Source: Nitrogeniibacter aestuarii (GTDB lineage Bacteria > Pseudomonadota > Gammaproteobacteria > Burkholderiales > Rhodocyclaceae). Taken from it: a DNA stretch of 64,000 bases. The translations under genes and the position numbers were made by a program. This document shows positions 4,431-18,375 of the stretch, one piece after another. Within the stretch, counting starts at the first letter, position 1, and every line of letters begins with the position of its first letter. A model generated the notes under the pieces. It did not search any database, was not told where the DNA came from, and was given only the letters and a program-made list of their open reading frames with translations. The stretch spans positions 156,335-220,334 of the forward strand of contig NZ_CP071321.1 of the NCBI RefSeq assembly GCF_017309585.1. The letters run 5' to 3'.

Positions 4431-4565
4431 AGTCTACAAACTTTCACGGTCGCACGGCATGCCGTCGCGGATGTGATCGATGCCGCGCGATGAACGCCGG
4501 ATCCCGCGATACACTGGCGCCCTGAGATGGCAACGCCAATGGCATGAGCAGGAGAGAGCGGCGGC

Positions 4566-6266
4566 ATGATGATTGGTATCGATCTGGGCACCACCAACAG
4601 TCTGGTGGGGGTGTTTCGCGACGGTGAAGCGACCTTGATTCCCAATGCACTGGGGCATGTGCTGACCCCGTCCGCGGTCGGCATCGACGAGCAAGGCAAC
4701 ATGCTGGTGGGCTTGCCGGCACGCGAGCGCATCGCGACCCACCCGGATCACACCGCGATCGCCTTCAAGCGCTGGATGGGTACCGACAAGACCCTGATGC
4801 TGGGCAAGAAGCGTTTTCGCCCTGAAGAACTCTCTGCGCTGGTGCTGGGTGCGCTCAAGCGCGACGCCGAAGCGTTTCTCGGCGAGCCGGTCACCGAGGC
4901 CGTCATCAGCGTGCCGGCCTACTTCAACGAGGCGCAGCGCAAGGCCACCAAGACCGCGGCCGAACTGGCCGGGCTCAAGGTGGAGCGCCTGCTCAACGAG
5001 CCGACCGCTGCGGGGCTGGCCTACGGGCTGGCCGAACGTCAGGAGATGAGTACTTTTCTGGTCTTCGACCTGGGGGGCGGCACCTTCGACGTGTCGGTGC
5101 TGGAGTATTTCGAGGGCGTGGTCGAGGTGCGTGCCAGCGCGGGCGATACCCGGCTTGGCGGTGAGGACTTCGTGCAGGTGCTCATCCGCCTGTTTCTGGA
5201 GCGTTGCAAGGCGCTGAGTGCGGCCGATCGCGAACGCATCGAGCGCGACCAGAGCCTGTGGCGTATCGCCGAGCAGGCCAAGCGCGATCTGGGCGAGCAC
5301 GAGCAGGTCGTCATGCGCCTCCGGTTCGGTGACGCGACTCACGAACACACCATCACCCGGGCCGACTTCGAGGCCGCCTGCGCCGATCTGCTCCAGCGCC
5401 TGCGCCACCCCATCGAGCGCGCGCTCAAGGACGCTCAGCTCGACCCGGGCGCCTTGACCGAAATCGTGCTGGTGGGCGGTGCGAGCCGCATGCCGGTGGT
5501 GCGCCAGATGGTGACCCGGTTGTTCGGTCGGCTGCCGCTGCGCCATATCAACCCGGACGAGACCGTGGCCCGCGGTGCGGCGATTCAGGCGGCGCTGAAG
5601 GCGCGTGATGCGGCGCTGGACGAAGTGGTGCTCACCGACGTGATGCCGTTTTCCCTCGGCATCATCATCAGCCAGGAGACAGGTGGGCGGCGCATTCCCG
5701 ACCGGTTTTCGCCGATCATCGAACGCAATACCCCGGTACCGGTGTCGCGCGTAGGGAGCTACTGCACGGTCCGGGACCAGCAGGCCGCGATCTTTCTGGA
5801 TATTCGTCAGGGCGAATCGCCCGTGGGCTCGGACAACCTCAAGCTGGGCGAACTGGAAATGCCCGTTGCCGCCCTGCCGGCGGGCGAGGCCAACGTGGAT
5901 GTGCGCTTTACCTATGACGTGAACGGCCTGCTCGACATCGAAGTGACCGACACCCGCACCGGCCACAAGGTGAGCACCGTCATCAAGCAGTCTGAAAACG
6001 TGATGACCGAGGCGCAGATTGCCGAGGCGCTGGCTAAGCTCGCCGATCTCAAGGTGCACCCGCGCGAGAAGCAGGAAAACATCTATCTGGTGAATCGGGC
6101 CAAGCGGCTGTACGAAGACAACCTGGGCGAGGTGCGTCAGCAGATTCTCGACTGGCTCTCCCGTTTCGAGGGCATCCTCGAGTCCCAGGACGAGCGTCGC
6201 ATCCGTCAGGCACGCACGGACTTTGCCGCCGCGCTCGACAGCATCGATCGTGGCTTCATTCTCTGA
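4566..6266 (+). CDS. hscC: Hsp70-family chaperone HscC (Hsc62-like)
   Basis: [32 protein letters not shown] and related Hsp70 motifs. Collinear similarity to E. coli HscC including the short C-terminus. Followed by a J-domain membrane protein, as in hscC-djlC/djlB. Confidence 0.85.
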
Positions 6267-6278
6267 GCGGTCGCTGGC

Positions 6279-8264
6279 GTGAATGACCACTGGGACTGCC
6301 TGGGGCTCGAACCCACCGACGACCTGGCCACCATCAAGCGTGCCTATGCCAAGGCACTCAAGCTCAACCGGCCCGAGGACGATGCCGGCGCCTACCAGCG
6401 CCTGCGCGAGGCCTACGACTGGGCGCAGCAATTTGCGCGCTGGGCAAAGGCCAATCCCGGCTGGCGGGAGGAGGACGACGACCCGGACGAGGACGTCAGC
6501 GAGACGGATGAGGCTGCCGCGCCATCGGACCTCGACAGCCCGACGAGCAGCCACGAAACGCGCCCACCGCCAGAGCATGAAGTGCAGATCGCGGTATCAC
6601 CACCGGATCATCGTGCCTGGTGGCAGCGTGTCGGTGTCGATCCGGCCGCCGTGCTCATGCCGCACGATCGCGTGCTGCTCACGGGCGAGGGCGCGGCCGA
6701 ACCGCTCATCTTCGTGAGTGTGCTGGGGCAGGCCGCGCCAACCCTTGTGCCACGCTGGCATCGGCATGTGGTGCCTGAGCATGAAGCCACCTGGGCCGAC
6801 CCGATCTACGGTTTCGACGATCTGCACGCCGTCGACGCCAACGACGTGCTCGATGTGCTGGCCGACTGGCGTGACGCCGACGATCCGAATGAAGACCGCA
6901 GCGAAGCCCTCGTGCATCTGCTCCATCAGCTGCCGCTGCGCGAACAGGACGAGGTGCAGGTGCGGTGTGCCGGATTCGTGCTGGAGCAATCTGACCTTCC
7001 GCCCCGGCTGGTCCTCACGCTGGCAAACTGCTTCGACTGGGGGCGTGATTTCCGGCTCGAACAACTCATCGGTGAAGACGACGCGCTGGCGCTCTATGAG
7101 CGCATCGAGCGGGCGCGGGAAGATCTCGCCGAACTCGGGCCGCGAGGCCTCAGGGCCGCGCAGGCGCGCCTGTCTCGCTTGCTCGACTCGGCGCGGGCGC
7201 ATGCCGAAAAACGCTATGCCACCTTCTGGGCGCGCCTGCTCTTGAGCCCTGTGGCGCACTATCGTGATCTGAAGGCACCAGATGCGGCCGTCGTTCTCTC
7301 GGTTGCGGAGCTGCCAGTGCGGCCGCTCTCCAGCGCTGTGCGTGCCGTGTTCTTCGTTTGTCTGCTCGCCGTCGCTGCGCTCATCGGATTCATGCATGGC
7401 GTCGACGGCGTGCTCCATGCGCTTGGCGCCGGAACTGCGCTTGAGCCGCGACTGACCTACCCCTTGCTGCTTCTCGGGGGAGGCGCGCTCGGCTATTACA
7501 TGATGGCCGAATGGCCCCTGCCCGGGCTGGTCGGTATTTTCAGCCGGTTGGGCGGGACGCGGCCGGGCGAATGGCTGGCCCAGCAACGACACCAGCGCGT
7601 CACCTACTGGCTCTGGCTGGCCTATCTGCTGATTCTGACGGTGGGTTTGACCGTGCCTTACGACGCCATGCAGAGGGACGACGTGGCGATGGATCCCGGC
7701 GTCTGGATTGCGATATCGGCGCTCTTCAGTGCCTTGCCATTGCTTGCCCTATGGCCGCGCGGTGAAGCATGGGAGCCTCTGTATCTCCCCATGTGGGGCA
7801 TGTTCAGCGCGGTGCTGGGGGCAAACACCAGTCTGGGCTGGCTGATGTCGCTGCCCATTGCCGCGGCCTGGATCGTGCTGGCGGCGCTGGTCGCGGTGTG
7901 CCATGCCGCGCTGGCCGATCGCGTGGTCAATGGCTTCTTCGGGTTGATCCGTCCCACTGGTTTCCGCTGGGTCCTGTTCTTCATTTTCATCAAGGGCGTC
8001 GTGGTGTTCTATACCGCACTCGCCCTGATCACCCCGCCACTGTGGTTGTGCGTCTATGCGCGCGATGCGGGCTGGCAGAAGGTGTGGATGGCCATGATGA
8101 TCGCCTTCGGCCTGTGGGGGACCGGGCTGCTGGCGCTCGACGGCTTCAGCTTCATGGTGTGGCTCATGGTGACGCTCTTTGCCATGACGCGGCTCGACCG
8201 CCTGATCGCCAATACGCTCGACACGCGAGCCCTGGGCGCCGCCGGAGGCGACGCCCGCGCCTGA
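6279..8264 (+). CDS. J-domain co-chaperone with polytopic membrane C-terminal region (DjlC/DjlB-like)
   Basis: N-terminal J-domain (DLATIKRAYAKALKLNRPEDDAG...YQRLREAYD). Acidic linker. At least 8 hydrophobic helices in the C-terminal half. Directly downstream of hscC. Confidence 0.75.
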   Translation: MNDHWDCLGLEPTDDLATIKRAYAKALKLNRPEDDAGAYQRLREAYDWAQQFARWAKANPGWREEDDDPDEDVSETDEAAAPSDLDSPTSSHETRPPPEHEVQIAVSPPDHRAWWQRVGVDPAAVLMPHDRVLLTGEGAAEPLIFVSVLGQAAPTLVPRWHRHVVPEHEATWADPIYGFDDLHAVDANDVLDVLADWRDADDPNEDRSEALVHLLHQLPLREQDEVQVRCAGFVLEQSDLPPRLVLTLANCFDWGRDFRLEQLIGEDDALALYERIERAREDLAELGPRGLRAAQARLSRLLDSARAHAEKRYATFWARLLLSPVAHYRDLKAPDAAVVLSVAELPVRPLSSAVRAVFFVCLLAVAALIGFMHGVDGVLHALGAGTALEPRLTYPLLLLGGGALGYYMMAEWPLPGLVGIFSRLGGTRPGEWLAQQRHQRVTYWLWLAYLLILTVGLTVPYDAMQRDDVAMDPGVWIAISALFSALPLLALWPRGEAWEPLYLPMWGMFSAVLGANTSLGWLMSLPIAAAWIVLAALVAVCHAALADRVVNGFFGLIRPTGFRWVLFFIFIKGVVVFYTALALITPPLWLCVYARDAGWQKVWMAMMIAFGLWGTGLLALDGFSFMVWLMVTLFAMTRLDRLIANTLDTRALGAAGGDARA

Positions 8265-9389: not shown

Positions 9390-9602
9390 GGGTGTCTCCC
9401 AATCTCTGGTCTGTGGCCGCTATTGGGTGCGACCTGAAACGTACAGCATGCCACCGTTTTCATGACGGCTCCACCCTGTGCGAAGCAGGGGGATCTGGCG
9501 CCTCTTGCGAGATCATTGAAATGGCATGATTTGCGGCTGTCTGTTTGCCAATGGCATAGTCTCGCGTACCATACAACCCCTCGTGTTTGTCCTGACCTTG
9601 CC

Positions 9603-12560
9603 ATGTTTTCCGAGTTTTCCACCGCCACGCGGCTGTACGATCTGAGCTGGCGCGACAGCGGCCCTGAGTTGCTGGTCGAAGCCTGGTGGGGCCATGAGGC
9701 CCTGTCGCAGGGGTTCGAGCTGTGCATCGACGCGCTGTCGACCGACGCACACCTGGCGCTCAAGGACTTTCTGGGCAAGGCGGTGAGCCTGCGCTGCGCC
9801 CTGCCCGACGGCAGCGCCAGCACCCGCAGCGGTCTCGTGCGCGCCGCCTTCAAGCTGGGCAGCGACGGCGGCTTCACCCGCCACCGGCTGGTGGTGGTGC
9901 CCTGGAGCTGGCTGCTCACGCAAACGCGCAACAACCGCGTCTTCCAGGACAAGAGCGTGGTCCAGATCGTCGAACAGGTATTCGCCACCCACCAGCAGTT
10001 CGCTGCCTGGCAGTGGAGCGATGAAGTGGCAGGCTTTCTGGAGCGCGTGCGTCCCCGCAGCTACTGCGTGCAATACGGCGAAACCGACTACGCCTTCATT
10101 TCCCGCCTGCTGGCCGAAGAGGGCATCGGCTGGTGCATGGAAGAAGACGACAGCGCCCCGGCCGGCCACCGCATGCGCCTGTTCGCCGACAGCGGCGCCT
10201 TCCCCGAAGACGTCCAGTCCCAGGTGGGCGGCATCCGCTTTCACCGCGCCGACTCGCAGGAAGAGAGCGACGCCATCGTCGCGCTCGGCGCCCACCGCAA
10301 GCTCGGCCTGTCGGTGGGCACCACGCTCAGCTACGACTACAAGCACAAGAAGATCGTCGCCACCAGCCTGCCCAGCGTGCAGCGCCCCGGCGGCCCCAAC
10401 GCCCCGGTGCTCGAAGACTTCGACGACGCCGGGCTCTACGCCTACGCCGACCGGGCCGAAGCCGAGCACTACGCCGGGCTCATGCTCGAAGCGCGCGAAG
10501 CACGCTTCAAGACCTTCATCGGCCGCGGCACCGTGCGCAGCTTCCGCCCCGGGCTGGCCTTCAGCCTGAGCGAATCGACGCTCGACGCCCTGGTCGACTC
10601 ACCCGACGACGCCACCGACGAGAACGCCACCCGCTTCGGCCTGCGCTCGGTGCTGCATGTGGGCATCAACAACCTCACCGGCGAAGCCATGGCCAGCATC
10701 GCCAAGCGCCTGTCCGGCGCACTGCACACCGACCCCGGCGCCTGGGAAGAGGCCGAGACACCCCGCGCCGACATCGCCCACGCCCCCGCCCAACTGCCCG
10801 ATCGCATCCTCGAACTGGCCTGCGAGCGCGGCTACGGCAACCAGTTCGACACCCAACGCCTCAGCGTGCCCTGGCGCCCCGTACTGGCCGACGGCACCGG
10901 CGAGCGCCTCAACCCGCGCCCCACCGCCCCCGGCCCCATGACCGCCATCGTCGTCGGCCCGCAGGGCGAAGCCAGCCCCAATGGTGCCGACGAGCTCTAC
11001 TGCGACAAATACGGACGCATCAAGGTGCGCTTCCACTGGCAGCAAGGCCTCGAAGCGGACGACAACCGCAGCTGCTGGCTGCGCGTGGCCAGCCGCCAGG
11101 CCGGCGAAGGCATGGGCTGGCAGTTTCTCCCGCGTATCGGGCAGGAAGTGCTCGTGGGCTTCCTGGGGCAGGACATCGACCGCCCCATCGTCATCGGCGC
11201 GCTCTACAACGGTCGGGGCGAGGGTGGCGTCGCCCCCACCCCGGGCGGCGAGACCGGCAGCGAATCGGACACCAGCGTCTTCACCCAGGCCACCGACCAC
11301 AGCCCCTCCGCCCAGGGCAACCTCAGCGCCGGCAACAGCCCCGCCTGGCACGGCGGCGCCTCCACGGGCCACGGCCACGCCGCTGCCCTGACCGGCTTCA
11401 AGACCAAGGAGTTTGGTGCCAACGGCAGCTACGCCGGCTACAACCAGCTCGTCTTCGACGACACTGACAGCCAGCAGCGCGTGCAGCTCAAGAGCACCGA
11501 ATCGACCAGCGAACTCAACCTCGGCCACCTCATCCACCAGGCCGACAACTACCGCGGCTCCTTCCGTGGCACCGGCGTCGAACTCAGAACCGATGCCTGG
11601 GGCGCCCTGCGCGCCGGCAACGGCTTGCTCATGAGCACCTGGGCCAAAGGCAGTGACCGAGAACCGGCCGGCGACAACAGCGCCGGCATGGCCCTGCTCA
11701 AGCAAGCCACCACCCTAGGCGAAACCCTCTCGGGCGCCGCCAAGACCCACCAGACCGTGCAACTGGCCAGCGCCCTGGGCTCCCAGGCCGCCAACCAGAG
11801 CGCCATCGACCCCGACGCCGCCCCCCTCAAGGCCCTGCACACCGTCGCCAGTGGCATGGTCGCCCGGGACAGCACCGGCGCCGCGAACAGCGACGCGGGC
11901 GCCAAGAACACCGCCGTGGGCGATGGCAAAGTCCCGCATCTCACCGATGCCGCCATCGTCCAGGCCGCCAAAGCCGGCCTGGCCATGGTTGCCGGGCAAC
12001 ACCTGCAATGGACCGTGGGCGAGACCGCCACCCTCATGAGCGGCCAGGACACCAACTTCGCCATCGCCGGCAAGACCCGTATCCACACCGGCCAGGCCAT
12101 CGGCCTGCTCGCCGGCGCCATTCAGCCCGGCGAGCAGAACACCGGCATCAAGCTCATTGCCGCACAAGGCGACATCGATGCCCAGGCCCAGAGCGACGAG
12201 ATGAAGTTCCAGAGCAAGAAGGACCTCAAACTCGTCTCGGCCAGCGCCAACATCGACTTTGCGGCGGCCAAGAAGATCGTCATGTCAGTCGGGGGCGGGG
12301 CGAGCATCACCATCGACGGGGGCATCACCGTGCAGTGCCCGGGGACGATTACGGTGCATGCGAGCAAGAAGAGTTTTAGTGGGCCGACGAGCGAGAGTTA
12401 CGCGTTGCCCGTCATGCCCACTGAGAACAGCGACTGGGTCAAGGTTGACGCGGTATACGACGACGCCTGGAACACCCGTTGGCCCTTGGACGACATGAAG
12501 CTCGATCTTGGCGGACAGCCGCTGGCCACCCACTTCAACCTCCCCAAGACCAAGGAGTAA
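9603..12560 (+). CDS. vgrG: Type VI secretion system spike protein VgrG
   Basis: 985 aa. gp27/gp5-like N-terminal modules (FELCIDALSTDAHLALKDFLGKAV, YCVQYGETDYAFISRLLAEEGIGW). G-rich beta-helical repeat region. ATG at 9603 is inside the longer tracked ORF and has an upstream purine-rich region. Confidence 0.9.
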   Translation: MFSEFSTATRLYDLSWRDSGPELLVEAWWGHEALSQGFELCIDALSTDAHLALKDFLGKAVSLRCALPDGSASTRSGLVRAAFKLGSDGGFTRHRLVVVPWSWLLTQTRNNRVFQDKSVVQIVEQVFATHQQFAAWQWSDEVAGFLERVRPRSYCVQYGETDYAFISRLLAEEGIGWCMEEDDSAPAGHRMRLFADSGAFPEDVQSQVGGIRFHRADSQEESDAIVALGAHRKLGLSVGTTLSYDYKHKKIVATSLPSVQRPGGPNAPVLEDFDDAGLYAYADRAEAEHYAGLMLEAREARFKTFIGRGTVRSFRPGLAFSLSESTLDALVDSPDDATDENATRFGLRSVLHVGINNLTGEAMASIAKRLSGALHTDPGAWEEAETPRADIAHAPAQLPDRILELACERGYGNQFDTQRLSVPWRPVLADGTGERLNPRPTAPGPMTAIVVGPQGEASPNGADELYCDKYGRIKVRFHWQQGLEADDNRSCWLRVASRQAGEGMGWQFLPRIGQEVLVGFLGQDIDRPIVIGALYNGRGEGGVAPTPGGETGSESDTSVFTQATDHSPSAQGNLSAGNSPAWHGGASTGHGHAAALTGFKTKEFGANGSYAGYNQLVFDDTDSQQRVQLKSTESTSELNLGHLIHQADNYRGSFRGTGVELRTDAWGALRAGNGLLMSTWAKGSDREPAGDNSAGMALLKQATTLGETLSGAAKTHQTVQLASALGSQAANQSAIDPDAAPLKALHTVASGMVARDSTGAANSDAGAKNTAVGDGKVPHLTDAAIVQAAKAGLAMVAGQHLQWTVGETATLMSGQDTNFAIAGKTRIHTGQAIGLLAGAIQPGEQNTGIKLIAAQGDIDAQAQSDEMKFQSKKDLKLVSASANIDFAAAKKIVMSVGGGASITIDGGITVQCPGTITVHASKKSFSGPTSESYALPVMPTENSDWVKVDAVYDDAWNTRWPLDDMKLDLGGQPLATHFNLPKTKE

Positions 12561-12566
12561 GGCCAG

Positions 12567-13769
12567 ATGGCTTCGGAAGACGAGGGCGCGAAGAAGTTGC
12601 TCACCCCACAGGGCGGCTCCGTCGCCGTGATGGCAAATCCGAGAAATGTCAGTGAGAAGGAGATTCACGACGACAGATTGCTGATCATTCAACGCCTTGA
12701 CGGTTGCTATGGCAATCTCGTTGAGCACATGGCACCAATGCAGGCGGCCTGGGATGCCAACCCCATGGTCGCGTTGGGCGAAGCGGCCATCGACGGTGCC
12801 AGCGCTGGTGTTGGTGACTGGGCCGACGACTTTGCCGACATGTTCGACAAGAAGACGTGGGTCGCGTTGGGGGACAAGTTGGAGCATGCGGCAGGCGCCG
12901 TCTACGACACCACCCGCGAGTATGCGGCGGATGTCTACCAGCGCATCGACGCGCTCTTCGAGAACGCCGACGATACCCTCGCCAACTGGGCATGGTGGCA
13001 AAGCCAGATCGAATCGGCCGAGCAGGCCGTCGTTGACGATCTCCAGCGAAAGTACGAAGCGATGAGGGAAACGGTTGATGACATCGAGGAGGTCATTGCC
13101 ATCGCCCAGCGGGTGTGGGCCTATCGGGACGACATTCTCAACCTCCCTAAGCTGATTGCAGAAGGTGACGCCAAAGCGGTGCAAGCCTTTGTCGACAACA
13201 CACTACCGAAGATCGACAAGGAACTGGCCGATGGCATTCGCAACGACCCGAATTTCTACGTCGTGCTGGAGATCATTCAGGACAATGACAGCGCGCTGGC
13301 CTATCTGAGTTACGTCAGCCTGGCCATCGAAGCCGTGCCGCCCAACTTCTACGCCTACCACGCCGGCAAGGGCGGCGCCTACCTGATGATTGAAGTGGTG
13401 CTGCTGATCGTCACCGCACTGCTATCGGCCGGCACCGTCGCCGCAGCACGCATCGCCGCACTCGGCGCGCGAATTGCCGCCAGCAGCGCCAAGGTCGCCG
13501 GCGTTGCCCGCAAGGTCGAAGCGGCGCAACGCGCCTTCGCCGCCTTTGTCCGCATGCTCGACGACTTCTCGGCCGCCGCCAACCAGCTCCACGCCCTGGG
13601 CGCCAAGCTCAACGTGGCGCGCCAGCGCGGCCTGCGTGTTGCGGGCAGCACAAAAACCACCATCACCGCCCGCCGCGCCGCCATCAAGCGCGACCGCCGC
13701 TGCCGCATCTGCGGCAGCAGCAAACACAGCACACCGCACGGGCGGCTGGGCACGGTCGAGTACGAATAA
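12567..13769 (+). CDS. VgrG-linked hypothetical protein; probable carrier/N-terminal part of a T6SS effector
   Basis: Starts 6 nt after the vgrG stop with RBS CAAGGAG. Hydrophobic/Ala-rich segment near residues 265-330. In the same reading frame as the downstream AHH gene, separated only by TAA at 13767-13769. Confidence 0.5.
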   Translation: MASEDEGAKKLLTPQGGSVAVMANPRNVSEKEIHDDRLLIIQRLDGCYGNLVEHMAPMQAAWDANPMVALGEAAIDGASAGVGDWADDFADMFDKKTWVALGDKLEHAAGAVYDTTREYAADVYQRIDALFENADDTLANWAWWQSQIESAEQAVVDDLQRKYEAMRETVDDIEEVIAIAQRVWAYRDDILNLPKLIAEGDAKAVQAFVDNTLPKIDKELADGIRNDPNFYVVLEIIQDNDSALAYLSYVSLAIEAVPPNFYAYHAGKGGAYLMIEVVLLIVTALLSAGTVAAARIAALGARIAASSAKVAGVARKVEAAQRAFAAFVRMLDDFSAAANQLHALGAKLNVARQRGLRVAGSTKTTITARRAAIKRDRRCRICGSSKHSTPHGRLGTVEYE

Positions 13770-13784
13770 GGAGAAGAAGGCACA

Positions 13785-14462
13785 ATGCTCGGCAACGTAC
13801 TGAAGGACGCCAAGTACCTCAAACGCATCAAGGACGCCACGGACCTGCTCTCCGACCCCGGCCACCCGCGCCACCACGGAATCAAGATGCAGGCGCATCA
13901 TGTGATTTCGGCGGAGGGGGTGAAGAAGTCTGGTCTTGGGAACGATCTCGTTCGATTTGGCTATGACATCAACCTGTTGGACAATCTGGTCTTCATTCCC
14001 TCGACGCTACAGGGCGCGTGCCACTTGGGCGTGCAGCCGCACCGGGGAGATCACAGGGCGCCGGTCGAGGGGGATGAGTTTGATGATGATCGGAAGCGAC
14101 CGGATGACTACCATAGAACGATCGCCAAGCGAGTCAATGAGTTGAAGCGCCTGCTTACCGACAATTGCCCGGCCGAGGATCCGGACCGGCGGCGGACGAT
14201 TCACCAGAAGATGGATGAGATCAGCAAGAAAATTGCGAAACTCATCCGAATCGTCCCGAGTAAAGCTCCTCTGACGAGAGTTGCGAAGCACTTCGGCCCG
14301 ACATCAAAGATCGGCTGCGGCGGGGTCGATTCGATTCCTCGCCACGAAGACCATCCCTGCCCGGTGGAGCGACATCACCACGGTCAGCAAGGCCCCGGCC
14401 AGAAGGACGAGCAAATCACATACCGGAAAGATAAGCCGTATCAGTTGAAGGTGGGACGATGA
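13785..14462 (+). CDS. AHH-family HNH/EndoVII-fold nuclease toxin domain protein
   Basis: A-H-H motif in MQAHHVISAEGVKKSG. Followed by DINLLDNLVFIPST and a His-rich segment (GACHLGVQPHRGDH), as expected for AHH nucleases of polymorphic toxin systems. Stop overlaps the first immunity-like gene (ATGA). Confidence 0.72.
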   Translation: MLGNVLKDAKYLKRIKDATDLLSDPGHPRHHGIKMQAHHVISAEGVKKSGLGNDLVRFGYDINLLDNLVFIPSTLQGACHLGVQPHRGDHRAPVEGDEFDDDRKRPDDYHRTIAKRVNELKRLLTDNCPAEDPDRRRTIHQKMDEISKKIAKLIRIVPSKAPLTRVAKHFGPTSKIGCGGVDSIPRHEDHPCPVERHHHGQQGPGQKDEQITYRKDKPYQLKVGR

Positions 14463-15085
14463 GCGCAGGCAGGTTTGACAATGACTACTATTTTGTCCAC
14501 GAAGTCCCTCACGATGAGCGTCTTCCATACCTGACACCCGATGAAGACACGTCGCGCAAACCCTATACGTCCAAGCGACTCCCGATGCATACCAAACCGT
14601 TGATTTTCCACAACGGCTCCTTGGATTATCAAAAGGCGAACCGCATCACTCCGTACGATCCGCCCCCGGAAATCCTCTTCAGTGGCTCCGACGTTGTCGT
14701 CAAGGACAAGCTGCGCGACAAACTCCTGCCGCTGGAAATTCCCAACCTCGCCATCCAGCCGGCGATCTACATCGACCACAAAAACAACTGGCACGAGGAC
14801 TACTGGTATCTGACATTCACCGAGTTGTTCGATTGCTGGGATCGAGAGAGGTCTTACTACGACCCCGATCCGGTCGATTTCGACGATGTGAAGCTCTACG
14901 AGGTGTACACCTACTCGCTCGACGAAAAGGTGTTGGAAGAAACGCCGCTCGAATCTCGGCGCCTGTTCAAGATGGGTAGCACCACGGAAGGTCCGGTTGT
15001 CGTCCACGTCTCCATTGCAAGCTGGTTCGGACTTAGCGGCGCAGTGCTTGTGCCCATCGCCGAGTATGGGGTGTCATTTCCCTGA
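14459..15085 (+). CDS. putative immunity protein, tandem paralog 1 of 3 (207 aa)
   Basis: Immediately downstream of, and ATGA-coupled to, the AHH toxin gene. Shares the conserved core LPLEIPNLAIQPAIYIDHKNNWHEDYWYLTFTELFDCWDRER with paralogs 2 and 3. No secretion signal. Confidence 0.6.
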   Translation: MSAGRFDNDYYFVHEVPHDERLPYLTPDEDTSRKPYTSKRLPMHTKPLIFHNGSLDYQKANRITPYDPPPEILFSGSDVVVKDKLRDKLLPLEIPNLAIQPAIYIDHKNNWHEDYWYLTFTELFDCWDRERSYYDPDPVDFDDVKLYEVYTYSLDEKVLEETPLESRRLFKMGSTTEGPVVVHVSIASWFGLSGAVLVPIAEYGVSFP

Positions 15086-15112
15086 AGCGAGAGCGGTGTT
15101 GAAGGTCGGACG

Positions 15113-15736
15113 ATGAGCACAGGAAAATTCGATAGCGACTACTACTTTGTTAGAAAAGCGCAAGACGAGCGTTTGCCGTCGTTGACACCCGACGAAGATA
15201 CATCTCGCAAGCCTTATACGTCGGAGCGGCTTCCGATGCATACCAAGCCATTGATCTTCTTCAACGGTGCGTCGGATTTTCAGAAGAGCAATCACATACG
15301 GCCAAGTGACCCGGCTCCAGACATCCTTTTCAGCGGTTCGGATGTCCTCGTCAAAGACGAAGTACGCGATAAACTTCTGCCGCTGGAAATCCCCAACCTC
15401 GCCATCCAGCCTGCCATCTACATCGACCACAAGAACAACTGGCATGAGGACTACTGGTATCTGACGTTCACCGAGTTGTTCGATTGCTGGGATCGTGAGC
15501 GATCGTCATATCGGCCCAAGCCCATCGATTTCGATGGAGTGAAGATCTACAACGTACGTCAATATTCCCTGAACGATGACCTGCTTGACGAAACCCCACT
15601 CGAGTCCAGACGGCTGTTCAAGATGGGTGGCACGCTGGATGGCTTCGTCGTCGTCCATGTCTCCATTGCGAGCTGGTTCGGACTCAGCGGCGCAGTGCTT
15701 GTGCCCATCGCCGAGTACGGGGTGTCATTTCCTTGA
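15113..15736 (+). CDS. putative immunity protein, tandem paralog 2 of 3 (207 aa)
   Basis: Divergent N-terminal ~60 aa and residues ~135-170. Conserved core and C-terminus. Preceded by a 27-nt spacer whose last 17 nt mimic the 3' end of the AHH gene. Confidence 0.6.
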   Translation: MSTGKFDSDYYFVRKAQDERLPSLTPDEDTSRKPYTSERLPMHTKPLIFFNGASDFQKSNHIRPSDPAPDILFSGSDVLVKDEVRDKLLPLEIPNLAIQPAIYIDHKNNWHEDYWYLTFTELFDCWDRERSSYRPKPIDFDGVKIYNVRQYSLNDDLLDETPLESRRLFKMGGTLDGFVVVHVSIASWFGLSGAVLVPIAEYGVSFP

Positions 15737-15763
15737 AGCGAGAGCGGTGCTGAAGGTCGGACG

Positions 15764-16387
15764 ATGAGCACAGGAAAATTCGACGGCGAATACTATTTCG
15801 TGCTGAAGGACAGGGCAGAGGGAATGCCAGAAATGACGCCGGATGAGGACACCGCAAGGAAGGGCTATCGGTTCACTCGGCTTCCGCTGCACACGAAGCC
15901 TCTGATATTTCACAACGGCTCATTGGAGCATCAACGAGCAAATCGAATTAGGCCCATCGACCCGCCTCCCGAAATTCTATTCGATGGCTCCGACGTCCTC
16001 GTCAAAGACGAAGTACGCGACAAACTCCTGCCGCTTGAAATCCCAAACCTCGCCATCCAGCCTGCCATCTACATCGACCACAAGAACAACTGGCATGAGG
16101 ACTACTGGTATCTGACATTCACCGAGTTGTTCGATTGCTGGGATCGAGAGAGGTCTTACTACGACCCCGATCCGGTCGATTTCGACGATGTGAAGCTCTA
16201 CGAGGTGTACACCTACTCGCTCGACGAAAAGGAGTTGGAAGAAACCCCGCTCGAATCTCGGCGCCTGTTCAAGATGGGTAGCACCACGGAAGGTCCGGTT
16301 GTCGTCCACGTCTCCATCGCGAGCTGGTTCGGGCGCAGCGGCGCAGTGCTGGTGCCCATCGTCGAGTACGGGGTGTCATTTCCCTAA
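15764..16387 (+). CDS. putative immunity protein, tandem paralog 3 of 3 (207 aa)
   Basis: C-terminal 150 aa nearly identical to paralog 1. N-terminus distinct. Same junction sequence as paralog 2. Confidence 0.6.
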   Translation: MSTGKFDGEYYFVLKDRAEGMPEMTPDEDTARKGYRFTRLPLHTKPLIFHNGSLEHQRANRIRPIDPPPEILFDGSDVLVKDEVRDKLLPLEIPNLAIQPAIYIDHKNNWHEDYWYLTFTELFDCWDRERSYYDPDPVDFDDVKLYEVYTYSLDEKELEETPLESRRLFKMGSTTEGPVVVHVSIASWFGRSGAVLVPIVEYGVSFP

Positions 16388-17284
16388 GACCGTCTTGGCC
16401 TCCGATTTGGTGCTTCCCTTGGATACAAATTTTCAAGGCTGGATGGAAATTGCTTGGGCCCGAAGACATCCCTGCTCGAAGCCTGCGACGAGTACGTCAC
16501 CTTGCTCAACCTGCGCAACTGGGAAAAGCTTTGCGAGCGCTACGTGACCGAACAGATCTACGTGCACTCAAAGCTGATGGTTGTGGATGACCGGATCGCG
16601 CTCATTGGCAGTGCCAACATCGATGACCGCAGCTTGCTGGGCGAACGCGATTCGGAACTGGCGGTACTGGTGATTGACGACACCCATGAGAAGGCCGACA
16701 TCGGCCTGGGCCGGCAGACGCCGGTGCGCAAGTTTGCGCGGGAACTGCGCATGGACATCTGGAAGAAGCTGTTCGGAATCACCGGCAATGTGCGCCCGGC
16801 CACGCATCTGCAGGCGGCCATCGAACAGCCGGTCAAGCCAGCCAGTTGGAAGGCGATTCAGAAGCAGGCGCGGGAGAATGCCGAGGCGTATGAGAAGGCG
16901 TTTGAGTTTGTTCCGAGGAATTGGGTAGATGAGGTCGAAGGCAGGGTTCCTGCCAAGATCTTGCCCACTTGGGATTCAAGCTCCGACGTGCCTGAGGGAA
17001 TAGCGGCCAATTGGGGAAAGAAAGGCTATCTGAAATCGCCATTACCGTTCCAGTCGGAATTCTGGGGTAAGCCACGTTACAACCCGACCGCCGTGGCCGG
17101 CCTCAACGACATCAAAGGATTCATTACCGCCCTGCCCGTTCACTGGACCGAAGGCGAGAATATCAAGTTTGTGTTCCCGACATCGCTAGTGGTGCAGAAC
17201 GATCGTACACCGGCCGGTACGCCGCTAAAGACCGCTTGGGACGCAACGCAAGAAGACCAAGCTATAACGGACGAACACGTATGA
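16388..17284 (+). pseudogene. Orphan C-terminal fragment of a phospholipase D-family (Tle5-like) T6SS effector; no start codon
   Basis: Frame opens immediately after the TAA of immunity paralog 3, with no ATG/GTG and no RBS. Contains one PLD HKD motif (HSKLMVVDDRIALIGSANIDDRS = HxKx4Dx6GSxN). The first HKD repeat is missing. ATGA overlap with the downstream lipoprotein gene. Confidence 0.65.
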
Positions 17285-18375
17285 GCTACCGGAATATTGC
17301 GATGGCCCTCGGGCTTTGTCTGCCGCTGGGCGCTTGCGCCGACAAGCCTGCAAACCAGACATGGCCAATCGAATGCGTAGGGCGCATGCAGATTTCGTTG
17401 CCGGGCGAGGCCGATCAGGCAGCCTTACCAAGTTCGGCATTCATTGAACAGTTTGCCGCAACTCAGACAAAGCGTATCCGGCACACGTACTCAGATGGGT
17501 CGTACGCTTCGCGGGTCAATTTATATTTTCGCGCCGGCGTGGAAGTCAGTCAAAAACTCAGCAATCAGGAAGTCGCGAATCTGAAGGGGGCCATCAAGGA
17601 GCGAAATATCCGGGTACAGCAGCATGCGAAAGACCAAGGCGGACAAGTGACATATTTGAATACTGGTCCGCTTGAAGGCTCAGTGCTGGTGCGAAGCGAT
17701 GTGTTTTACATCTCTTCCACATTGATATTTGGCCAACATGCGCTGACATGGAAACTTCGCACGGACGAAAAACGCTTTGACGAAGTGAAGGCTTTGGCTA
17801 ACGGTTTGAGCACGAACCTTCGTCCCCGCCCCCTTTTCGACACCCCCCACGAACCTGGCGTCTGCCTGCCCTATGCCTTCATCCGCGACGACGGCACCAC
17901 CCCGCACAGCATCGCCATGAGCTACCGGCTCAATGATCACCCGGACATCGTCATCAATCTGGAGAGCAGTAGCGCAAGCCCCACACCGAAAAAGGGCGAC
18001 CATGCCCGCCCGGATACCGTCACAGACGAGACGCGCACGAGTGATTTCTGGAACCAGCAGATGACATGGCTGCACACGTTCAAAACCCACTGGAAGCGCC
18101 CATTCTCCATGCGCAGTGTGGACATCGCCGGTCGTAAAGGCACGGCATCGTTCGTGGAAGTGGTGCGCGAAAAAGGCGGTCCCACCGACCACATCTATCT
18201 CGTGGTCGCGCGCGGCAATCCGGACGCCCCCGAGGCTGAGCCGGACATCCGCTTGTTCGTCGAGCAGACGCAGGAGAACGCCACCAAGCGCGGCATTACG
18301 CCGCTGACGCAGGACGAGGTGCAAGCGCTGGCCGAGCAGATCACTGCGAGCGTGTCGATCAGGCCCACTCTCTGA
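17281..18375 (+). CDS. lipoprotein, putative periplasmic immunity protein (Tli-like) for the PLD effector
   Basis: Signal peptide plus lipobox (MALGLCLPLGAC). Translationally coupled to the PLD fragment. Matches the usual tle-tli arrangement. Confidence 0.55.
   Translation: MSYRNIAMALGLCLPLGACADKPANQTWPIECVGRMQISLPGEADQAALPSSAFIEQFAATQTKRIRHTYSDGSYASRVNLYFRAGVEVSQKLSNQEVANLKGAIKERNIRVQQHAKDQGGQVTYLNTGPLEGSVLVRSDVFYISSTLIFGQHALTWKLRTDEKRFDEVKALANGLSTNLRPRPLFDTPHEPGVCLPYAFIRDDGTTPHSIAMSYRLNDHPDIVINLESSSASPTPKKGDHARPDTVTDETRTSDFWNQQMTWLHTFKTHWKRPFSMRSVDIAGRKGTASFVEVVREKGGPTDHIYLVVARGNPDAPEAEPDIRLFVEQTQENATKRGITPLTQDEVQALAEQITASVSIRPTL

Follow-up and report, generated by a model that had tools for sequence, protein, structure and literature searches.

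The orphan vgrG island of Nitrogeniibacter aestuarii probably encodes a type VI secretion system (T6SS) nuclease effector in separate pieces, namely VgrG, a carrier protein, an AHH nuclease and three immunity paralogues. The island was studied in a stretch of 64,000 nucleotides (nt) of contig NZ_CP071321.1 (assembly GCF_017309585.1, positions 156,335 to 220,334 of the forward strand), hereafter the window, whose coordinates are used below; vgrG, ORF A, ORF B, the immunity genes and the elements within and between them lie on the plus strand. Behind vgrG stand two open reading frames (ORFs): ORF A (12567..13769), encoding an all-helical protein of 400 amino acids (aa) and 43.4 kDa, and ORF B (13785..14462), a stand-alone Tox-AHH nuclease gene of 225 aa with a pI of 9.4. 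The TAA codon between them (13767..13769), seen in the sequence and the translation, is genuine and ancient, and the two ORFs are separate genes; the reading frame that they share here is an accident without meaning. Regarding function, the relatives of ORF A suggest that its product is most likely a secreted carrier or loading platform, to which the AHH protein would be bound non-covalently as cargo.

The stop codon between ORF A and ORF B

An earlier note on this DNA had stated that the ORFs starting at 12567 and 13785 are in one frame with TAA as the sole interruption, and that the first is linked to VgrG while the second encodes an AHH nuclease. Both statements were confirmed. The sequence, the ORF list and the translation place the two ORFs in the same frame (1218 = 3 x 406), the TAA is the only stop across a read-through of 632 codons, and vgrG lies directly upstream. 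Furthermore, residues 29-126 of ORF B match the Pfam family AHH (PF14412, HNH/EndoVII superfamily) with 43.7 bits against a cut-off of 22.3 (E 3e-11). The note had considered a sequencing error, a nonsense-inactivated effector and a split in which carrier and toxin are translated separately, and preferred the split on account of a ribosome-binding-like sequence in front of the downstream ATG. Such a sequence is indeed found there: the 15-nt spacer (13770..13784, GGAGAAGAAGGCACA) offers a Shine-Dalgarno-like AAGGAG, which overlaps the stop, and a GAAGG. The sequencing error, on the other hand, was refuted. The identical TAA and spacer are found in three independent assemblies (SRR31366765, SRR31366774 and SRR31366777), and an artefact is thus excluded; the same assemblies differ from the window at synonymous sites near the stop.

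The position of the stop was then compared with orthologous loci. A scan of one genome per species yielded 36 loci, distributed over Beta- and Gammaproteobacteria plus one metagenome-assembled genome of Desulfobacterales. The gene order A, AHH and one to four immunity homologues was found in 34 of them, mostly with vgrG ahead. In 34 loci the stop of ORF A is kept at the same codon position, with TAA, TAG and TGA all in use. Between this stop and the AHH start lie -8 to 159 nt, with no sequence relation among the spacers of the orthologues, and the frame relation of the two genes is distributed as 12/8/14 over 34 loci, the window included. Since one pair in three is expected to share a frame by chance, the shared frame in the window is no more than that. 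Extra in-frame stops were also detected in the spacers of four of the in-frame orthologues. In the closest relative, Denitromonas iodatirespirans (84% and 86% amino acid identity), the spacer is 16 nt long and the genes are out of frame (+1). Comparison with this species gave ratios of nonsynonymous to synonymous substitution rates (dN/dS) of 0.12 for A and 0.16 for B, which indicates purifying selection on both genes.

The homologues of ORF A (n=114) are nearly all 400-413 aa long. In 22 diverse members the stop falls in the same alignment column and the last 25 residues are nearly invariant, this C-terminus being the best-conserved part of the protein (KRD.[RK]C..C.S..H.TP....G.V.Y, then the stop). 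Residues C379, C382, H387, T389, P390, G395 and Y399 are invariant. The corresponding basic tail of ORF A in the window, with its Cys-x2-Cys...His...Thr-Pro motif (13689..13766, KRDRRCRICGSSKHSTPHGRLGTVEYE), ends at the family-wide stop position. The ORF A/AHH boundary, with the stop right after the CxxC..H..TP..G.V.Y tail, is fixed across Beta- and Gammaproteobacteria.

These data bear on the idea that a nonsense mutation has recently disrupted one effector gene, or that a sequencing error makes such a gene look disrupted. The shared frame, the single stop and the short spacer speak for it, and single-chain homologues do exist. However, the stop is at a family-wide position with 34 loci split, it recurs in the three independent assemblies, and both genes have low dN/dS values. 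In addition, nothing in the orthologues, whose spacers differ in length and frame, corresponds to the five in-frame spacer codons (GEEGT), and the AHH gene has its own ATG at a conserved N-terminus (MLGN..KD..YL) preceded by the Shine-Dalgarno-like site. We consider the probability of a broken gene to be practically negligible, and the nonsense-inactivated effector of the earlier note is to be dropped. The sense codon that, according to the same note, might occupy this position in orthologous effectors was found in none, the stop being at the same place in all homologues; the orthologues are two genes with divergent spacers and no conservation of frame. By contrast, the split that the note had preferred is upheld by the conserved stop, the stand-alone AHH genes and the selection acting on both genes.

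Programmed read-through of the stop, which would produce some 69-kDa A-AHH fusion beside the two separate proteins, is very improbable as well. It would fit the in-frame arrangement with one stop seen here and the fused architecture that is functional in relatives. Nevertheless, the frame is not conserved even in the nearest relative (+1), the four in-frame orthologues mentioned above have further spacer stops, all three stop codons are used, and no recoding signal was seen. A G after TAA, as here, also makes for efficient termination. The lesson for annotation is a narrow one: a stop that separates a VgrG-linked ORF from a toxin ORF in the same frame is no evidence of a pseudogene.

Relatives of the A domain and their fusion partners

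A profile search of 1.84 billion representative proteins returned only 151 relatives of the A domain. In close relatives the domain always ends the protein, whereas distant relatives extend beyond it. Single chains in which an A-like region is followed by a C-terminal AHH domain are P0280 (647 aa), P0332 (691 aa), P0342 (676 aa; Paracoccus sulfuroxidans WP_145399876.1) and P0365 (688 aa). Another chain combines the A-like region with Ntox15 (P0333, 595 aa) and is followed only by a Tdi1-type immunity gene. The correspondence with the window is close in P0280: residues 3-391 of ORF A align with its residues 2-440 (E 2e-36), and residues 11-225 of ORF B with its residues 452-647 (39% identity, E 1e-40). 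The CxxC..H..TP motif is kept just before the AHH part of the fused proteins, e.g., CEICGSTTHETP in P0280, and the stop of the window thus falls in their short linker. In three assemblies P0280 stands between a 938-aa VgrG and a 210-aa gene with 49-51% identity to the immunity genes of the window; P0342 in Paracoccus is flanked by a DUF4123 adaptor and an Imm11-like gene. The setting of these single chains matches that of the window, with VgrG or an adaptor upstream and immunity downstream. A homologue search with P0280 gave only one further fused relative.

The expectation of the earlier note that a toxin domain normally forms the C-terminus of a single delivery polypeptide is therefore correct for the distant A-AHH chains and fails in the window's clade. 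There, the homologues of ORF B number 196, and the 120 listed all stand alone, have 190-268 aa and are conserved along the entire protein, with no fused form among those listed. A fused ancestor would be the more parsimonious reading, given fused forms on the deepest branches and an A-like domain that precedes different toxins. Extensions of 160-350 residues without a Pfam match follow the A-like region in P0277 (734 aa), P0324 (644 aa), P0335 (666 aa) and P0302 (709 aa), and these are candidate new toxin domains on the same carrier.

The A domain is also found at the C-terminus of other proteins, namely PAAR-like proteins (P0113/L037, P0271 and Vibrio crassostreae L035), a VgrG of Ketobacteraceae (L025, 1169 aa), a PAAR-like Rhs protein (P0308/L041, 2198 aa) and LysM-containing proteins (L024, L026, L030 and P0238). 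A separate AHH gene lies downstream in every such locus examined (L024, L026, L030, L025, L035, L037 and L041). In L041 (metagenome contig ERZ26052214, 5001-16597) this gene encodes 196 aa and overlaps the end of the Rhs-A gene by 14 nt; about 1.6 kb further on, there is an Rhs fragment that carries Ntox15, as well as a Tdi1-type immunity gene. Among identified toxin domains, the A-like domain precedes nucleases only (AHH and Ntox15). The CxxC..H tail goes with AHH, fused or split, and is absent from the forms with Ntox15 or other toxins. This pairing with AHH only is the sole hint that the tail may be a handle for the nuclease.

Because the A domain is covalently joined to secreted spike components and toxins, it must leave the cell. 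This is relevant to a possible role of ORF A as an adaptor or chaperone of the cytoplasm, which would load AHH on VgrG without being secreted, in the manner of DUF4123/Tap-1, DUF1795/Eag or DUF2169 proteins and stay behind. ORF A has no enzymatic domain, and with vgrG on one side and the effector gene on the other it takes the position typical of adaptors. However, neither ORF A nor its homologues gave a Pfam or NCBIfam match to DUF4123, DUF1795 or DUF2169, and a domain fused to VgrG, PAAR-like proteins, Rhs and toxins has to exit together with them. Moreover, true adaptor genes occur in addition to the A domain, i.e., a DUF4123 gene beside the fused A-AHH in Paracoccus (L042) and a DUF2169 gene beside PAAR-A in L037. 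A cytoplasmic adaptor is accordingly a quite improbable role for ORF A.

Features of the ORF A protein

ORF A has no match to a Pfam or NCBIfam family. Its AlphaFold2 (AF2) model is all-helical, with a mean predicted local distance difference test (pLDDT) of 66 and a predicted template modeling score (pTM) of 0.68. The most prominent element is a hydrophobic helical hairpin at aa 268-305 (13368..13481), with a 19-residue Kyte-Doolittle maximum of 2.33 at aa 273; in the AF2 models its helices span residues 270-286 and 290-308. The hairpin is conserved in both split and fused relatives. It has an invariant PPNF.AY..GKG motif on its N-terminal side and, on its C-terminal side, a long amphipathic helix together with the basic Cys/His tail. 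Known delivery signatures were not detected in ORF A: there are no MIX motifs, no RIX domain (the N-terminus has 5% Arg), no prePAAR motif and no strict GxxxGxxxG glycine zipper, the only repeats of this kind being small-xxx-small ones with Ala, Gly or Ser. Membership in the SseC family (PF04888) was not supported either, as the best score was 27.5 bits against a cut-off of 30.2, sub-threshold matches were limited to 5 of 22 members, and the window protein had no match. We found no description of the A domain in the literature, and nothing specific on a Chromobacterium example or on a "split effector". Papers on WHIX and on DUF2345/LysM/FIX-like domains were considered as descriptions of it and set aside, as they treat other domains.

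The hairpin raises the question whether ORF A is itself a membrane-disrupting or pore-forming toxin, with AHH as a second, independent effector of the same VgrG. The hairpin is strongly hydrophobic and lies between amphipathic helices, and there is a weak, sub-threshold likeness to the SseC/SctB translocon, apolipoprotein and HeLo/RPW8-type helical families. Furthermore, at the tip of the Rhs protein P0308 the place of the toxin is taken by an A-like region, and an orphan copy of A without AHH exists (L029). The immunity genes point in the other direction. No second immunity gene is conserved and many loci consist of A, AHH and a single immunity gene, while the three immunity copies in the window are paralogues of one type (77-85% identical). 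The combination of the A-like region with Ntox15 is followed by the Tdi1-type immunity gene only. These observations on immunity argue against ORF A as a toxin in itself. In addition, the A-like region is N-terminal to the toxin in the fused relatives, which is the position of a delivery domain, and A co-occurs with AHH in 34 of 36 loci. We thus regard an independent toxin as unlikely.

The boundary between vgrG and ORF A

The boundary between vgrG and ORF A would be a second split point of the same effector chain, judging from the alignment with single-chain forms. A small beta domain, with a consensus running from W[IV]K[IV].A.Y.D.W.TP... through ...E.G....P..G.[IV].[IV]E, is unbroken in the single chains P0113, L025 (the VgrG-A fusion), L035, P0332 and others. 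In the window the same domain is cut by the vgrG/ORF A boundary, VgrG ending with DWVKVDAVYDDAWNTRWPLDDMKLDLGG... and ORF A beginning with ...DEGAKKLLTPQGGSVAVMANP. Its first part is represented by the C-terminal beta motif of VgrG (12430..12557, SDWVKVDAVYDDAWNTRWPLDDMKLDLGG...), and its last strands align with aa 13-25 of ORF A (12603..12641, TPQGGSVAVMANP). AF2 places a strand at residues 18-22 of ORF A. The division of the beta domain at this boundary suggests that VgrG and ORF A may dock by strand complementation.

The nuclease and its immunity genes

The residues A37, H38 and H39 (QAHHVIS) and the downstream metal-site or active-site histidines H86 and H90, together with four Cys, are invariant in 20 homologues of ORF B; the codons of the catalytic motif A37-H38-H39, as located by translation and homologue alignment, lie at 13893..13901. 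The C-terminal part of the protein (C128, C178, C192 and H198) is also conserved across the ORF B family. The nuclease gene is followed by immunity gene 1 (14459..15085, 208 aa), whose start overlaps the AHH stop (ATGA), paralogue 2 (15113..15736, 207 aa; 80% identity to gene 1) and paralogue 3 (15764..16387, 207 aa; 85% identity to gene 1 and 77% to paralogue 2). Their similarity to Imm11 (PF07791, cut-off 22.1) remained below threshold, with 18.5 bits for gene 1 and 19.1 bits for another copy, while the remaining copy gave no score. In nearly all loci AHH is followed by a homologue of immunity gene 1, and in L038 and L042 such a homologue stands behind the fused effector. The putative immunity role of the genes at 14459-16387 is thus supported by their position and their co-conservation with AHH. 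The three tandem paralogues are 77-85% identical and orthologous loci have one to four copies, which indicates a poly-immunity array with a copy number that varies between genomes.

A model of delivery

According to the model that we favor, the N-terminal strands of ORF A would complete the beta domain begun at the C-terminus of VgrG and so fix ORF A to the spike. ORF A would hold the AHH protein non-covalently, possibly via the Cys/His tail, the AHH-immunity complex would be resolved at loading, and carrier and nuclease would be fired together. In a more speculative step, the hairpin of ORF A would insert in the inner membrane of the prey from the periplasm and help the nuclease into the cytoplasm. 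Given this hydrophobic hairpin and the lack of an immunity gene of its own, ORF A may also be a membrane translocator. In the window's clade the split would swap the covalent linker for a non-covalent one.

A number of observations weigh against this model, in which secretion of ORF A and its binding to AHH are inferred. The fold of ORF A resembles nothing among solved structures; a sequence search of the PDB with the family profile of ORF A produced only apolipoprotein-like noise (E >= 0.18). The sub-threshold matches to SseC, a type III secretion system translocon protein, are at residues 64-195, in the coiled coil and not in the hairpin. An AF2 model of A plus B, based on the window concatenation and an alignment of fused homologues plus unpaired A and B homologues, had a pTM of 0.56; confidence was good in the AHH domain (pLDDT >90 over much of residues 410-480) and low in the A tail (369-401), as it was in A alone, and docking was not predicted, the model being without predicted aligned error or contacts. 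This model speaks neither for nor against binding. Neighbor-joining bootstraps did not decide between fission and re-fusion, as 42% of the replicates put the fused P0280/P0384 outside the main split clade and 47.5% put them within it. Moreover, two loci deviate from the standard arrangement. In Duganella margarita (L029, 5953-7092) an orphan A homologue of 379 aa (39% identity) is flanked by lon and ppiD, and the surrounding 6 kb contain neither vgrG nor an AHH or immunity gene. In Pseudoduganella sp. RAF19 (L005, 1751-7200) the order is permuted to AHH, immunity, VgrG, A. No AHH follows ORF A in this last locus, and a convergent second vgrG module with a LysM/PG_binding/lysozyme effector is located downstream.

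A more far-reaching version of the favored model is that the A domain is an undescribed T6SS translocation module dedicated to nucleases, the chain of which has two breaks, both at module boundaries, and is put together again by complementation. VgrG would contribute the first strands and ORF A the last, the tail would be part of the AHH unit (e.g., through a shared zinc site) and serve as the non-covalent handle, and the hairpin would carry the released 25-kDa nuclease through the prey inner membrane. We see this version as possible, albeit rather doubtful. If true, the repeated switching between fused and split forms in the A family would reflect selection on toxin release.

Loading on the spike and crossing of the prey inner membrane by T6SS nucleases outside PAAR and Rhs proteins are only partly understood. 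The A family is a natural experiment in this respect, as carrier and nuclease are found as one chain, as two chains, or with the carrier on VgrG, PAAR-like or Rhs proteins. The cut is always after the conserved Cys/His tail, and the loading and release steps become directly testable. The carrier domain is compact and uncharacterised, with about 150 representative clusters among 1.84 billion proteins, and could also mark nuclease effectors.

Other features of the island and the window

The vgrG island spans 9462-18375 and is set among housekeeping genes. Upstream of it are an RND efflux pump and an aminotransferase, and downstream a phasin, an MFS transporter and a trehalose-phosphate synthase; the island is called orphan because it is flanked by such genes on both sides. 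At its head is vgrG (9462..12560, 1032 aa), which encodes the T6SS spike protein. Its assignment to the VgrG class is clear, as all four Pfam families, including the gp27/gp5-like Phage_GPD and Phage_base_V, were far above their cut-offs (Phage_GPD 1.1e-71, DUF2345 1.7e-39, T6SS_Vgr 3.7e-35 and Phage_base_V 1.1e-16). Both ORFs have matches of 100% identity in N. aestuarii, ORF A to a hypothetical protein and ORF B to an AHH domain-containing protein.

Right after the immunity array, at 16454-18375, there is a 276-aa ORF with a TTG start and a single PLD HKD motif (PLDc 5e-10), which resembles a fragment of a phospholipase D (PLD)-type effector. It is overlapped by a 379-aa ORF with a Tli4_C immunity domain (4e-14), and the two may be a decayed second effector-immunity pair of the same island. 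Elsewhere in the window, a 714-aa ORF on the minus strand (4434-6578) matches the Pfam family NAD-GH (2e-58). It overlaps the plus-strand ORFs 4566-6266 and 6279-8264, both of which are long and have no family match.

Comparison with known systems

This conserved T6SS nuclease effector in several pieces belongs to an already recognised kind, and its carrier domain is undescribed. Cytoplasm-acting T6SS toxins can have N-terminal membrane-active regions, such as those of the effectors with prePAAR and transmembrane domains (e.g., Tse6) and the glycine zipper of Tde1. As in these toxins, a hydrophobic element here accompanies a toxin that must cross the prey inner membrane. In contrast to them, the module has no prePAAR motif, zipper or Eag chaperone gene, and the hydrophobic element is on a different polypeptide than the toxin.

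Single-chain T6SS effectors with Tox-AHH have been described, namely Rhs-AHH proteins and the 522-aa V2a of Agrobacterium tumefaciens 1D1609, which combines a PAAR-like region with AHH (PMC6971182; PMC10902643). They share with the present module an AHH DNase-type toxin (predicted in our case) and a cognate immunity gene, downstream of vgrG. The toxin in those systems is the C-terminus of the delivery polypeptide, whereas here it is a separate protein of 225 aa. Closer in this regard are the effectors with PAAR auxiliary modules of Vibrio parahaemolyticus, which occur as specialized (fused) or cargo forms, the latter with the toxin in a separate gene; the AHH effector VP1415 is listed as Specialized/Cargo in Table 1 of that study (PMC9765294). 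In both systems the AHH or Ntox15 nuclease is either the C-terminus of the delivery protein or encoded by a separate downstream gene, and immunity follows. The loci of Vibrio crassostreae L035 and P0271 look like the Vibrio cargo forms, with a PAAR-like protein plus A domain and then a separate AHH gene. The carrier of the window differs in that it lacks PAAR and stands alone as a 400-aa protein downstream of vgrG in a betaproteobacterium, and its likeness to VP1415 is one of architecture by description.

The MIX binary module VP1388/VP1390 consists of an effector and a co-effector that are encoded side by side, co-secreted and mutually dependent, and the domain of the co-effector is elsewhere a part of single-chain polymorphic toxins (Dar et al., 2022; PMC8728615). 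ORF A differs from it in having no MIX motifs, and the MIX effector is periplasmic while the AHH nuclease must reach the cytoplasm. The secreted RIX adaptors combine a C-terminal loading platform with a cargo effector and immunity, the module being attached to RIX, PAAR or VgrG depending on the bacterium, and fold completion between the RIX carrier and its partner has been proposed (Kanarek et al., 2023; PMC10435454). The three-gene logic of secreted carrier, cargo effector and immunity is the same here, and the beta domain split at the vgrG/A boundary recalls the proposed fold completion. Unlike RIX adaptors, the window carrier, known here from its sequence, has no arginine-rich RIX domain and is a 400-aa helical protein with a hairpin instead of a TTR platform, and the A family includes single-chain carrier-toxin relatives. 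Two features of a MIX/RIX-type binary module are nevertheless present, since carrier, cargo and immunity genes are adjacent and co-conserved (34 of 36 loci) and the carrier domain is found fused to VgrG, PAAR-like, Rhs, LysM, AHH and Ntox15 partners. By analogy, ORF A would work like the MIX and RIX carriers without belonging to either family.

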